Origin: Octopus vulgaris
Taxonomy: Eukaryota
NCBI GenBank assembly: GCA_951406725.2
Contig: OX597818.1
Coordinates: 41,230,001 to 41,294,000 of the forward strand
Reading direction: 5' to 3'
Length of the DNA: 64,000 nucleotides
Both the position numbers and the translations under genes were made by a program. How positions within the stretch are numbered: the stretch's first letter is position 1; each line of letters starts with the position of its first letter. The notes under the pieces were generated by a model, which did not search any database, was not told the DNA's origin, and saw only the letters and a list, made by a program, of their open reading frames with translations. Below, piece after piece: positions 12,615 to 62,982 of the stretch.

Positions 12615-12735
12615 TTACAAGGTAAAGGCTCAAAGTAACTTCGAAGTTTCAACTTGTTTGCTTTCCCTTAATTGTCTGATGAAAGCAAGCAAGTAAGCCG
12701 AAACTTCGATGTCACTTTCAACCTTTTCCTTGTAA
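12615..12735 (+). ncRNA. Minimal hammerhead ribozyme core (12674-12715) inside an imperfect ~55 bp-arm fold-back
   Basis: gt CTGATGA aagc...gcc GAAA c-ttcgat-g TC ac. 12615-12665 is an imperfect reverse complement of 12681-12735. Followed by (TA)n(TG)n. Confidence 0.6.
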
Positions 12736-12736
12736 A

Positions 12737-12805
<69 letters not shown>

Positions 12806-13981: not shown

Positions 13982-14210
13982 TTTTTACTCTTTTACTTGT
14001 TTCAGTCATTTGACTGTGGCCATGCTGGGGCACCGCCTTTAGTCGAACAAATCGACCCCAGGACTTCTTATTCTTTGTAAGCCCGTGTACTTATTCTATC
14101 GGTCACTTTTACCGAACCGCTAAGTTACGGGGACATAAACACACCAGCATCGGTTGTCAAGCGATGTTGGGGGGGGGGGGGCAAACACAGACACACAAAC
14201 ATATACACAC

Positions 14211-14271
<61 letters not shown>

Positions 14272-14435
14272 CGACGGACTTCTTTCAGTTTTCGTCTACC
14301 AAATCCACTCACAAGGCTTTGGTCGACCCGAGGCTATAGTAGAAGACACTTTCCCAAGGTGCCACGCAGTGGGACTGAACCCGGTACCATGCGGTTGGTA
14401 AGCAAGCTACTTACCACACAGCCACTCCTACGCCT
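13982..14435 (-). mobile_element. tRNA-derived SINE family B, full length, with internal (TA)/(CA) microsatellite
   Basis: Head aggcgtaggagtggctgtgtggtaag, B-box ggttcagtcc, tail ccagcatggccacagtcaaatgactgaaacaagtaaaag. Matches the 16518 and 37171 copies. Confidence 0.92.
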
Positions 14436-14909
14436 ATGTAGATACATAGATAGAGACAGACAGACATACACACACACACACATTATCAGTCATCCGCAAA
14501 TGAAGATGTAATTTTTTCAGGTGATAATTTTTCAATGCAAAAGAGTATCAGCTGCCTGCAAGTCCTCACTCAAAGGCTTTTATTTCAGAGATTTCCCTCT
14601 CTTAAATAGATTGTCTTCACTTCAACGAGTGAGCACCAAATTTTTCAAGTGCTTAGGGCCTCTATGGGTCTTAATCCGGCTCAGTGTATGTCTAAAACTA
14701 TATTATTTACTTTAGCCTTCATTTTGACAACCCTTTACCCGTCTTGTGCATTCCATGTAATACAGAGGACATATGTCTCTGGCTTCTGTACATCATATAT
14801 AATACACATTCTTTTTTTTAACTCTTAGAGTAACTTATGACGATTTATATAACTCAGAACGTATGAAACAAGGACTAACTAAAAGTTTGAAAACAAGTAT
14901 GGACATACA

Positions 14910-16282: not shown

Positions 16283-16507
16283 GGGGGCGAGCTGGCAGAA
16301 TCGCAGCCTTAATTTCGCCGGGCGAAATGCTTAGCGTTATTTCGTCTGCCGCTATGCTCTGAGTTCAAATTCTGCCGAGGTCGACTTTGCCTTTCATCCT
16401 ATCGGGATCTATAAATTAAGTACTAGTGAAATACCGGAGTCGATGTAATCGACTTGTCCCCTTCCCCAAAATTTCCGGCCTTATGCCTATAGTAGAAAGG
16501 ATTATTA
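16283..16507 (+). mobile_element. SINE family A, monomer
   Basis: Family A sequence with an (ATT)n tail. TSD cataaacaat at 16270 and 16508. Confidence 0.9.
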
Positions 16508-16517
16508 CATAAACAAT

Positions 16518-16921
16518 AGGCGTAGGAGTGGCTGTGTGGTAAGTAGCTTGCTTACCAACCACATGGTTCTGGGTTCAGTCCCACTGCGTAGCACCTTGGG
16601 CAAGTGTCTTCTACTATAGCCTCGGGCCGACCAAAGCCTTGTGAGTGGATTTGGTAGACGGAAACTGAAAGAAGCCTGTCGTATATATGTATATATATGT
16701 GTGTGTGTGTGTGTGTCTGTGTGTCTGTGTTTGTCCCCCAACATCGCTTGACAACCGATGCTGGTGTGTTTACGTCCCCGTAACTTAGCAGTTCGGCAAA
16801 AGAGACCGATAGAATAAGTACTAGGCTTACAAAGAATAAGACCTGGGGTCGATTTGCTTGACTAAAGGCGGTGCTCCAGCATGGCCACAGTCAAATGACT
16901 GAAACAAGTAAAAGAGTAAAA
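16518..16921 (+). mobile_element. SINE family B, full length
   Basis: As for the 13982 copy; starts immediately after the family A TSD. Confidence 0.92.
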
Positions 16922-27861: not shown

Positions 27862-28397
27862 ATATCAAGTCGTCGTTCATAACCACTCAAAATGTTCTGT
27901 TCTTATATCAGGAGAGCAAATAGTACATTCGTTGGTGTGTGCAAAACTTTGTCAAGCTGGAACTAATTAATTAGCGGTACACTAAGCAAGGATGACTGAC
28001 GTATAGGTGTATACAATCATACTTAATATGTCCGAGTTCACTCTGATGGGGAAAGAAATACACAGAAGAAACTGCCACGGGAGAAAAAAATCTCTTCTCG
28101 TAAACGATATGTACTCAGTCAAATCTCACCTGGTGGACATAGAAAAGCATATGCTGACTCAAGCTACTTAAAATTTTGCTACTCAGAGTTTTTTAAAGAA
28201 GACGGGCAAACTTCAGGCGAAGAGATTTTCAGCTGAACAAGACAGTATAGTAGTTAACAACAGATCGTTTTTGCCGACTTTCGACCTCTCCCGCAATCTA
28301 TCTAACTCTTTTCACATGCATGCATACTCACACACATATATACAAACATACAGAGATACATGCATACACACACACACACACACTCGCATATACACTC

Positions 28398-28434
<37 letters not shown>

Positions 28435-28531
28435 GGAGTAAACACATAAATGTGAAACAAGGTGGTAAAAAGAGTACTCAAATACCAGTGGTAGAGTAAT
28501 ATGCTTTATTTAAAGCAGCAGAAAATTCAAT

Positions 28532-28578
28532 AAAATCTGTTACTCTGAGTTTCTCGTTGCCGTTCATCAGACAGTTTT
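28532..28578 (-). ncRNA. Minimal type-I hammerhead ribozyme (GUA site)
   Basis: Minus strand reads aaaactgt CTGATGA acg-gcaa-cga GAAA ctc-a-gag TA acagatttt. It lies in a 150 bp insert (28433-28586) flanked by (TA)n on both sides. Confidence 0.78.
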
Positions 28579-28583
28579 TGCTA

Positions 28584-28633
<50 letters not shown>

Positions 28634-28752
28634 GCATACACACACACATATATATACATAAATATATACATACACATATATATACATATATACATAAACA
28701 TATACACAGATAGACAGACATATCTATAGAAATATATATTTACATATATGCA

Positions 28753-37170: not shown

Positions 37171-37408
37171 TCTTTATCTCTTTTACCTGTTTCAGTCATT
37201 TGATTGTGGCCATGCTGGAGCACCGCCTTTAGTCGAGCAAATCGACCCCAGGACTTATTCTTTGTAAGCCCGTGTACTTATTCTACCGGTCTCTTTTGCC
37301 GAACCGCTAAGTTACGGGGACGTAAACACATCAGAATCGGTTGTCAAGCGATGTTGGAGGGACAAACACAGACACGCAAACATATACACACACGAACATA
37401 TATATATA

Positions 37409-37462
<54 letters not shown>

Positions 37463-37640
37463 TACACATATATATACGACGGGCTTCTTTCAGCTTCCGC
37501 CTACCAAATCCACTCACAAGGCTTTGCTCAGCCTGAGGCTATAGTAGAAGACAATTGCCCAAGGTGCCACACAGTGGGACTGAACCCGGAACCATGTGCC
37601 TGGTAAGCAAGCTACTTACCATACAGCCACTCCTACGCCT
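37171..37640 (-). mobile_element. SINE family B, full length
   Basis: As for the 13982 copy. Confidence 0.92.
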
Positions 37641-40875: not shown

Positions 40876-40951
<76 letters not shown>

Positions 40952-41112
40952 CAGGCGTGTCAAACCTCACTTTACTAATAGCTTTTTATGCAGCAGGTGC
41001 CCTGAGTTCTGGTATTTTCTTTTGACATTCCTTTCAGTTACGTCACTTAATGTTCTAACATGAAAGCCCTACATCTTTCCCATTCTATTCTACAATCTGG
41101 CAGTAACACATA

Positions 41113-41163
41113 GTGAATTCATCGCTGATGAGTCTTCATAAGACCGAAACATCTCGAGATTCA
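41113..41163 (+). ncRNA. Degenerate hammerhead core
   Basis: tcg CTGATGA gtctt-cat-aagac c GAAAC atct cga. The cleavage triplet is not canonical. Lies in an insert after the (TA)n at 40884-40949. Confidence 0.5.
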
Positions 41164-41374
41164 TCACCACACTGCTAAAGATCAGACTCCTTTCTACACA
41201 ATATTTAATTAGTTTTGATGAACTGAATTTATTGGATTGTGTTTGTTGCCAGCCCCTTTTTAAACGGAATTAGTCATCAAAATATTCAATTTTTCATTAT
41301 TACACTCAGGATATAATTTTTAATTAATTAAAGTTTTATAGTTCATCGCACCAAATATCTTAGTGCCTACTTTA

Positions 41375-45224: not shown

Positions 45225-45229
<5 letters not shown>

Positions 45230-45560
45230 GAATATAATTATAATTAAGGGCACTGGAGGAACAGCGCCTATGCTAGAGATAGATGTCAAACGACTATAAA
45301 CCACTTTGAATCTGCACTCTATTAGCCCAAGACTCAATGCAAGAAAAATTGATAAAAAGGATTTCGTAAAAACTTTGATTAACCCTAAATCTTCAGATTT
45401 CTGTTTTAGTAATCAATACTCTACCTTCATCAGTAGGGTACCCTTTTCCCTCCTTGTGCTAATGGAGTGCAAATTCAAAGTGGTTTATAGTCGTATGACA
45501 TCTATCTCTAGCGCACTCGCTGTTCCTCCAGTGCATTTAATTATAATTATATTTATATAA
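45225..45560. mobile_element. Fold-back element: ~105 bp inverted arms around a ~120 bp spacer
   Basis: 45225-45331 is the imperfect reverse complement of 45453-45560. TA-rich flanks. Confidence 0.9.
45382..45439 (-). ncRNA. Hammerhead ribozyme core in the fold-back spacer
   Basis: Minus strand reads acccta CTGATGA [25 nt, partly paired] GAAA tct-ga-aga TT tagggt. Stem I is a perfect 6 bp. Confidence 0.65.
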
Positions 45561-61416: not shown

Positions 61417-62302
61417 TAACATGCCGTCAAATATTAAGGTTGACATTTTAGACATGATGTAGGCAATATTATTCATTAAAATGAATTATTTTCCTCGTCA
61501 CTCGAGTTTCACATCACTACACCCGTCAACCGAGTATTGCCTTGTTTCGATTTTCCTATTGGCTTTATATGCTTTGAAGTTGGTTTAGTATTTAGTATGA
61601 GGATATCATTTTCGTCATTTCATTCCTAGACGATCGTTTATTCTTGTTTTGCTGAGGCGTTTTCTTTGGTTATCGTTGTTTCCTTCGCCAATTCGTAGGT
61701 TACTCTAATTCTGATTGGTCACTTTCGGTGTTGTTTTTCTCATCCTGTTTTTGTAAAATTGGTTTTCTTTAATCGTTTTCTGTATTTCGCTTTCCAACAA
61801 TCAATGCTACAGTCGTCTTCACGTTGATTGGTGGTTGCGTTATTGTATCCTGTTTTGTTATTGTTGTTTATTAATTTATCGTTTTTTCATTGGCTCTTTT
61901 AGGAGTCATTCACTATCTACCTGTTGATTACATCATCTATATCCTGTTTGTCGTTGAAGTTGTCGTTTTGTGTGCTTGATACATTGTGAATTTATATGTG
62001 TAATCGCTAAACATTTTAATATACAGTAGAGTAAAATAAATAACGTCGCACGAAGCTGCGTTGACAAACATATATTTGTGTAAAGTCATACTTTACACAT
62101 TGGAGTGTATTTGGAGGTGAGAAGACCTTCTGCCGCGTAACTAATCCCTGAAGAAAATTCTCCTAGACTTGTGAGAAAACGCATCTAGAGCTGTGGATGA
62201 CGTTTTTGGAACGCAGAGGCATGCATTTCTGTGTATTTTCGCTCTACATAAAAGGATGTGTCTCCCTTGCAGCATATATTTATAAGTTTCTCTTTCTCTC
62301 AT

Positions 62303-62369
<67 letters not shown>

Positions 62370-62394
62370 ATATATATAAGTGTGTGTTGTATAC

Positions 62395-62448
<54 letters not shown>

Positions 62449-62982
62449 TATTCTCCCTTAAGTTCCAAATATACTTCGACAGAGTTGTTGCTTTTATCCT
62501 AAATATTTCGAGGTTCAGTTATATTTTCCATACCCGTTACTAGGTTTTGTATATTGTGCATTGTATTCTAAAAAACTCGGTGATGTTGGGTTTATGATAA
62601 ACTGTTGATTTCAAATGTGAATTCGATCATTAATCTCACTTTGAATTTCAACATTTATAAGGTCCAAGAAATGTTTATAGATTGAGTTTTAACCCTTATA
62701 AATAGCACCAGTAAAATTACATTCTTCAAATGTCTAAATTTATATCTTCATATTTGAATTTTCATGAAATGAAGACTTAAACTTTAAGAATAGTGAATTG
62801 ATTCATGGCCTCATTTTACACTTGTGTGGGAATAATAATATGCTGAAAATAGTTATAAGTTTTCGTCTACAAAATATTGATTATATTGGGATATCTGTTT
62901 TGAATATCAGATTTTCATGTTATTTTTATTACGTTGAAAATTTAGGCGTGGGAGTGGTGTACCTAACATAGAAAAATATCCA

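Follow-up and report, generated by a model that had tools for sequence, protein, structure and literature searches.

What put a hammerhead-like sequence between two runs of TA repeats at this locus, and does that sequence amount to a ribozyme motif at all? It lies in a 154-bp cassette on the minus strand (28433-28586) that is bounded on both sides by (TA)n and occurs once in the window, by which we mean the whole 64-kb stretch of DNA analyzed. The two parts of the question call for different evidence: the first turns on the family to which the cassette belongs and on published ends of mobile elements, and the second on the parts of the motif and on how it could fold.

A hammerhead cassette between two TA runs

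Read on the minus strand, the cassette comprises the core of a type I hammerhead, a stem III whose palindrome has a single central nucleotide, and a GUA site. Its parts and flanks, in the order of the element, are as follows.

28433..28586, minus strand: whole cassette, one member of a high-copy repeat family; it likely represents the pLTR (3′ end) of a Penelope-like element (PLE) of Hydra type
28587..28623, no strand: TA run on the 5′ side (element sense), which opens a compound microsatellite extending to 28898; likely part of the target site
28571..28583, minus strand: 5′ arm of stem I, read from this copy alone beyond 28577; the cassette starts 3 bases outside it
28564..28570, minus strand: hammerhead core CUGAUGA; no alternative letter at ≥3% in the family, with lower depth near the masked edge
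28554..28563, minus strand: stem II, with an A·A opposition, 2 bp and a GCAA tetraloop; the family state, with predicted pair probabilities of ~0.8
28550..28553, minus strand: hammerhead core GAAA, from sequence
28542..28550, minus strand: stem III strand ACUC-A-GAGU, self-complementary as 4+1+4; self-duplex predicted at −7.4 kcal/mol
28540..28543, minus strand: GUA cleavage triplet (28543-28541) and predicted cut (28541/28540), from sequence and the hammerhead consensus
28528..28540, minus strand: 3′ arm of stem I; the letter of this copy at 28531 differs from 98–100% of family depth
28502..28517, minus strand: 6-bp hairpin overlapping an AAUAAA hexamer (28510-28505), from fold prediction
28476..28497, minus strand: tail hairpin, located 43 nt beyond the predicted cut, with 4 bp, a 3-nt U bulge and 4 bp
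28433..28498, minus strand: optional tail of 66 nt, absent from some copies, which instead run into (TA)n at ~28499
28401..28432, no strand: (TA)16, which adjoins the 3′ end in element sense and is likely the target that was nicked; other copies also enter TA here

The features of a minimal hammerhead of the PLE type are found together here: CUGANGA, GAAA and an NUH triplet, a palindromic stem III that cannot close, and a stem I around the cut. The G10.1-C11.1 pair of the consensus in PMC4209133 is absent from stem II, both in this copy and in the family. A descriptor combining the core, the palindromic stem III and stems I and II matches the 64-kb window once, at the cassette; although devised after the motif had been seen, it found any match in only 2 of 200 block-wise dinucleotide shuffles and an equally good one in none (0/200). 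No Rfam family reaches its gathering score anywhere in the 64-kb window, and within 28300-28700 the matches at E ≤ 10, 63 in all, are of low complexity only, with no hammerhead family among them. The hammerhead cassette is real, and the initial annotation of a near-intact minimal hammerhead between (TA)n runs is confirmed.

Stem I had been drawn in that annotation as aaaactgt/acagatttt with a bulge. The stem is present, but a symmetric register with an A·A opposition fits better than the bulged one: 4 bp, A·A, 4 bp and further pairs, with 11 of 13 positions paired in this copy. The private letter at 28531 breaks one C-G pair, and 12 of the 13 positions pair when the family letter is restored. 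Of 127,974 13-mers in the window, 149 pair equally well with the 3′ arm. Stem II consists of the pairs C28562-G28555 and G28561-C28556, with A28563 facing A28554.

Folded as a monomer, the cassette does no better than its shuffles (z of 0.19, 0.69 and −0.61), which is expected because stem III cannot close. The stem III strand is instead predicted to pair between two molecules, and the duplex and dimer predictions support the earlier argument that a 1-nt loop makes dimer pairing necessary. In model energies, which say nothing direct on activity, the lowest-energy dimer with the majority letter at 28531 is predicted to be a double hammerhead (−27.0 kcal/mol, versus 2 × −12.4 kcal/mol for the monomers), in which stems I and III are intermolecular, stem II is intact and the cores are unpaired. 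That single letter is predicted to take the stem I duplex from −3.9 kcal/mol in this copy to −10.2 kcal/mol; the dimer predicted for the window copy as it stands (−16.2 kcal/mol) keeps the stem III duplex and has a mispaired core. The cassette hammerhead is thus predicted to form only as a dimer. This arrangement is already known for PLEs, and dimer cleavage of PLE hammerheads was reportedly described by Lunse and colleagues in 2017.

Both flanks of the cassette are TA, as are the 3′ ends of other copies, which is the insertion pattern of Hydra-clade PLEs; microsatellites are plentiful in the window (252 tandem rows). No ORF was found adjoining the cassette, Pfam returned no RT or GIY-YIG domain across 111 window frames (there was one sub-threshold DUF match), and no pLTR-type partial tandem or inverted arrangement around an ORF is present at the cassette locus.

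An ATG within the hammerhead core opens a 29-codon frame. As a gene start of the kind known from an anole PLE, this frame was rejected, having no protein relative: phmmer over 1.84 billion representatives gave 0 matches, and a word-based search among longer proteins yielded one candidate and no match. The coding idea was also dropped because four commoner variants inside the frame all change the amino acid, by reading. For a plus-strand frame of the cassette, there was no match among 4,520 candidates.

Elsewhere in the window, a decayed hammerhead-like motif at 12666-12740 (plus strand; CUGAUGA at 12676, GAAA and GUC), which the descriptor does not match, ends in (TA)n ~30 nt past its would-be cut and is probably the end of another PLE family. 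Within 40951-41200 (plus strand), a decayed motif with its core at 41125 and a palindromic stem III lies ~175 bases after a long TA run and is probably another PLE remnant. On the same strand as the cassette and 700 bases from it, 27855-27810 (minus strand) holds CUGACGA, a 3-bp stem, GAAA and a palindromic stem III; because it has no stem I and a different palindrome, it is not the dimer partner of the cassette. The broken frame at 62144-62700 (minus strand) includes a 25-residue piece before (AGAT)n that by eye resembles the C-terminal part of a Hydra-clade GIY-YIG; Pfam gives this likeness no support, and the ESM Atlas, with no score above 0.89 for 62144-62518, was uninformative. The ~300 bases at 45229-45555, with imperfect inverted ends and TA-rich flanks, are possibly a short truncated PLE-type insert and contain CUGAUGA on the minus strand at 45433. 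Finally, 14014-14511, 16505-16890 and 37204-37606 belong to a single dispersed repeat; a microsatellite interrupts every copy, and their translations are near-identical.

Family size, variants and 3′ ends

Contigs from four of 24 public runs, which cover three coded organisms and three studies, were aligned to the cassette at a threshold of ≥80%, and 12,531, 4,142, 5,384 and 508 contigs aligned in the four runs. Because thousands of contigs align in the three large runs and 508 in the smaller one, the family is very high-copy, which bears out the proposal of a multi-copy piece of mobile element in (TA)n. At least part of the cassette is present in 22 of the 24 runs, and at least half of 11 sampled words in 9 of them. 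Summed depth divided by the median depth of eight listed pieces is ~4 × 10^4 to 1.4 × 10^5 per run, a ratio to be taken as an order of magnitude only and not as a copy number. The contig alignment left out 28578-28602, including any joints there, which puts the family 5′ end outside its view; depth drops toward this edge, and copies with a very different stem II may have been clipped.

Alternative letters at ≥3% occur at nine positions, all within 28463-28536, and at no position in 28537-28577 in the four runs. Near-fixed differences from this copy are found at 28466 (95–99%) and 28531 (98–100%), and 28489, 28503 and 28536 are common family variants. The damage private to this copy sits at 28531, in stem I, and at 28466, not in stem II. 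Because no alternative letter reaches 3%, the A·A opposition over a 2-bp stem II is the state of the family. A consensus stem II of acg-gcaa-cgt had been predicted from the single copy and was not seen, no alternative letter reaching 3% at the A·A position. The initial annotation had named two outcomes that would count against its reading, a single-copy cassette and a consensus lacking stem II pairing; the cassette is not single-copy, but consensus pairing in stem II comes to just 2 bp.

Two further aspects of family variation were observed. At 28536 (stem I position 1.5), about half of the family (43–58% of depth) has G instead of A, and a compensatory change at 28575, such as the L001 plus-strand copy carries in its 5′ arm, would make stem I perfect. 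In addition, loose ends at 28467, 28510 and 28514 recur in all four runs, among those listed, and mark a diverged subfamily; its contigs of 883, 891 and 893 nt (organisms A, C and B) have nearly the same offset, which suggests a single insertion common to the three organisms.

The 3′ side of the cassette carries two predicted hairpins, and the fold of 28470-28520 has a z of −2.09, with 5 of 200 shuffles equally good. The variant at 28503 (5–15% of depth) converts a G-C pair of the 6-bp hairpin to G-U, so that pairing is kept, and the variant at 28489 is located in the loop of the tail hairpin. Among the loose ends listed, those entering TA before 28499 number 45, 31, 36 and 3 contigs in the four runs. 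The hammerhead is near the 3′ end in either form, the distance from the predicted cut being 108 nt in the long form and 42 nt in the short; the AAUAAA hexamer, a possible poly(A) signal, is separated by 72 nt from the end of the long form and by 6 nt from that of the short, and no A tail was seen. The two ends may correspond, by analogy with the anole PLE, to an optional tail between two RT start sites. Such a tail is described for EN+ PLEs, and two end classes are present here in all four runs (4/4), but they are 66 nt apart versus the 30–40 bp described.

Origin of the cassette and competing readings

Our preferred reading, to which we give a probability of roughly 55%, is that the cassette is the truncated 3′ end (pLTR) of an autonomous Hydra-type PLE, written into (TA)n by that element's RT and GIY-YIG EN and carrying a hammerhead predicted to work only as a dimer. 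The match in end structure, the TA flanks, the two 3′ ends and the family letters likely indicate a PLE pLTR with a dimeric hammerhead, and the published Hydra ends, in the parts of PMC8557442 consulted, support the pLTR type put forward in the initial annotation. No RT or GIY-YIG ORF was found linked to the cassette, and peptide searches from two frames were empty.

If insertion followed what is known of Hydra-clade biology, the endonuclease would nick (TA)n and the free end would prime reverse transcription. Copying that starts ~42 or ~108 nt past the cut would yield copies without or with the 66-nt tail, a putative cause for the two ends observed. In this copy, it would have halted just beyond the 5′ arm of stem I, which would explain why no ORF is present. 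Tandem or paired transcripts of the parent element are predicted to assemble a double hammerhead through stem III and a 12-bp stem I and to be cut after GUA, at a slow rate given a stem II of 2 bp below an A·A mismatch, and perhaps with the assistance of an element protein, as for the anole PLE. The solitary window copy, with its private change weakening stem I, is predicted to be inert.

A tentative alternative, less probable than an end left by an autonomous element, is a discrete non-autonomous mini-element of ~90 or 154 bp that derives from a Hydra-type PLE end, has a fixed 5′ end and is copied in trans like a SINE. It calls on the same enzyme as the preferred reading, and the difference is solely whether the 5′ end is fixed. 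The 5′ end of the window copy falls 3 bases outside the stem I pairing, a position that random truncation would seldom give, although RT might also be halted there by a strong stem. Stem III depth is ~70–75% of peak, so most aligned copies reach the ribozyme, and a 99-nt contig that spans 28499-28577 with only 7 and 13 extra letters is a weak hint in the same direction; however, one contig has 123 unread letters 5′ of 28576, the masking of 28578-28602 places the family 5′ end out of view, and no promoter was identified. Published precedent points both ways: in the parts of these sources consulted, non-autonomous PLE derivatives are described (PMC8557442; bioRxiv 10.64898/2026.07.22.740005), but most PLE insertions are 5′-truncated single ends (PMC4209133; bioRxiv 10.64898/2026.07.22.740005). 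An extended form of the mini-element reading, which we regard as improbable, supposes a 90/154-bp SINE-like element, cut from a Hydra-clade Penelope end at the ribozyme start, that is present at tens of thousands of (TA)n sites with an active double hammerhead (2 bp under A·A, 12-bp stem I). Were that so, pairing between two host transcripts with a copy each would bring about cleavage in trans by dispersed single copies; the family would then cut RNA across the genome in a pairing-dependent way and would serve as the smallest natural substrate for the PLE enzyme. Should a single 5′ end prove common to most copies, the family would represent a PLE-driven SINE of unusual abundance.

A type I hammerhead in a short non-coding unit of very high copy number would also suit a monomer of a tandem non-LTR retrozyme, cut to unit length, circularized and reinserted. 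Retrozyme units range from 51 to 972 bp and many are monomeric (bioRxiv 10.64898/2026.07.22.740005, in part), and the axolotl retrozyme hammerhead with a U·U stem II base cleaves better as a dimer (PMC7229834, in part). This origin is nonetheless very unlikely, because no tandem unit was seen. The tandem copies that the initial annotation suggested looking for are absent from the window, which has one copy; no head-to-tail joint is among those listed, joints at 28578-28602 having been dropped; and the one backward joint listed, found in a single contig in each of two runs, duplicates the 84-nt 3′ part. The ends, moreover, are PLE-type TA ends, not those of a permuted repeat. We consider it highly unlikely that the cassette is the end of a PLE from another clade (Neptune, Poseidon or Naiad) whose likeness to Hydra is convergent. 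The shared motifs are short, and Naiads also prefer (TA)n, some retaining a hammerhead core (PMC8557442, in part); but Naiads have an N-terminal EN and, in the same parts of that source, no canonical hammerhead, whereas that of the cassette is full. Furthermore, PMC4209133 Fig. S3 has 56 non-Hydra-focused rows, none of which shows actc-N-gagt (by reading, in the part consulted), the sole 4+1+4 row of that figure comes from Hydra magnipapillata, and eight short cassette motifs are absent from the Naiad-consensus supplement, in which 70-letter line breaks can hide matches. That the motif arose by chance or has no meaning, within some other type of repeat, would be compatible with the lack of an Rfam match and with monomer folding no better than shuffles. 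This reading is already largely refuted, and its probability is close to nil: no shuffle was equally good (0/200), the core is invariant across the family and matches published PLE hammerhead rows (PMC8557442, in part), and an unrelated metagenome locus keeps the core with another stem II.

That locus, represented by two metagenome contigs, was matched by a hammerhead pattern with stem II left free; the same pattern gave 0 matches in viral contigs. It has the same stem I/III core as the cassette, with a different, 4-bp stem II and U·U at its base. An inverted, decayed second copy lies ~280 bases away, followed by a similar bulged hairpin, and no ORF is found beside its hammerhead. The 3′ motif of the cassette gave 0 matches in prokaryote genomes and 0 in viral contigs. 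In L002, 4074-3690 (minus strand) lies ~2.3 kb from the matched hammerhead and by eye looks like the terminus of a further PLE, comprising an ORF end, a 3′ hammerhead-like motif and an inverted truncated copy.

No published description of the family was found in the literature and two supplements searched, and repeat libraries, Lunse et al. 2017 or other supplements may hold one. The cephalopod genome papers, in the parts consulted, mention Penelope expansions and Rfam hammerhead matches and describe no such family. The main value of the cassette is for repeat annotation, as a very abundant family end unseen by Rfam. It is also a test case for PLE biology, both for whether the pLTR hammerhead is needed, given that a 2-bp stem II under A·A is fixed in a strongly amplified family, and for what defines the optional tail, given ends 66 nt apart and a hairpin that looks common to Hydra-clade ends. 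It points to no host function and to no new kind of ribozyme.

Comparison with known hammerhead-bearing elements

Among published elements, PLEs of the Hydra clade match the cassette most closely, as judged from non-coding ends compared by eye. Elements of this clade are marked by a single ORF, an RT (RWK, DKT), a CxCX5C linker and, at the C terminus, a GIY-YIG EN without CCHH; because these defining marks lie outside our evidence and the assignment rests on a non-coding end, membership of the clade falls short of proven. In the parts of PMC8557442 consulted, which underlie this comparison, stem III is 4+1+4 in 17 of 26 Hydra hammerhead rows and reads actc-N-gagt in 5 of 26 (by eye), and (TA)n is the listed target in 26 of 27 Hydra families. 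All nine letters of stem III are identical between the cassette and Penelope-3_HM, the ctgt/acag stem I and the cleavage after A recur in Hydra-2_aMil, and the tail hairpin of Hydra-2_Amil, compared by eye, is 43 nt past the cut, as in the cassette. Among six Hydra consensus ends, the tail hairpin is comparable in three and unclear in one, and two stop ~30–40 nt past the cut, near the 42-nt short end of the cassette family. A type I hammerhead ~100 nt from the 3′ end is common to the cassette and the Hydra clade (Craig et al. 2021, PMC8557442), including Hydra-2_Ajap.

The base of stem II is unpaired on both sides of this comparison, with A·A in the cassette and, by eye, U·U in 14 of 26 Hydra rows and U·C in one. 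In contrast, no Hydra row in the parts of PMC8557442 consulted has A·A or fewer than 3 bp in stem II (the range is 3–7 bp), whereas the cassette has 2 bp under A·A; its stem I is also longer (12 of 13 positions). Unlike Hydra-clade PLEs, the cassette end has no ORF attached, and its copy number is very high. The published Hydra-1_oBim hammerhead is a different sequence from the cassette family (PMC8557442).

PLE hammerheads more broadly are mostly single dispersed motifs from truncated PLEs, with predicted activity as dimers (PMC4209133, in part). They share with the cassette CUGANGA and one extra base, GAAA, a palindromic stem III and NUH, and one row has an extra A before GAAA; the cassette stem II is shorter, by reading, than in any of the 56 rows aligned there. 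A 2-bp stem II is frequent in natural hammerheads, some of which start stem II with U·U (PMC3088659, in part), so the cassette is unusual for PLEs in this respect and not new for hammerheads. Metazoan non-LTR retrozymes resemble the cassette in being short, non-coding, PLE-derived and high in copy, with a type I hammerhead (PMC7229834; bioRxiv 10.64898/2026.07.22.740005; both in part), and the U·U-based stem II of axolotl HHR_Amex2 is weak, as is that of the cassette (PMC7229834). Retrozymes, however, are defined by tandem units, and none was seen for the cassette family.

The mechanistic parallel comes from Poseidon PAc of Anolis (Frangieh et al. 2024, PMC11167929, in part), in which RT can start at two internal sites and the sequence separating them constitutes the optional tail. 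The PAc hammerhead cuts only with protein, and hammerhead mutants still insert in vitro. The two systems differ in the length of the tail (66 nt in the cassette family, versus 30–40 in PAc) and in coding, the PAc ORF starting inside the hammerhead whereas the core frame of the cassette has no protein relative. They have in common two classes of 3′ end, an AT-rich target and a weak hammerhead.
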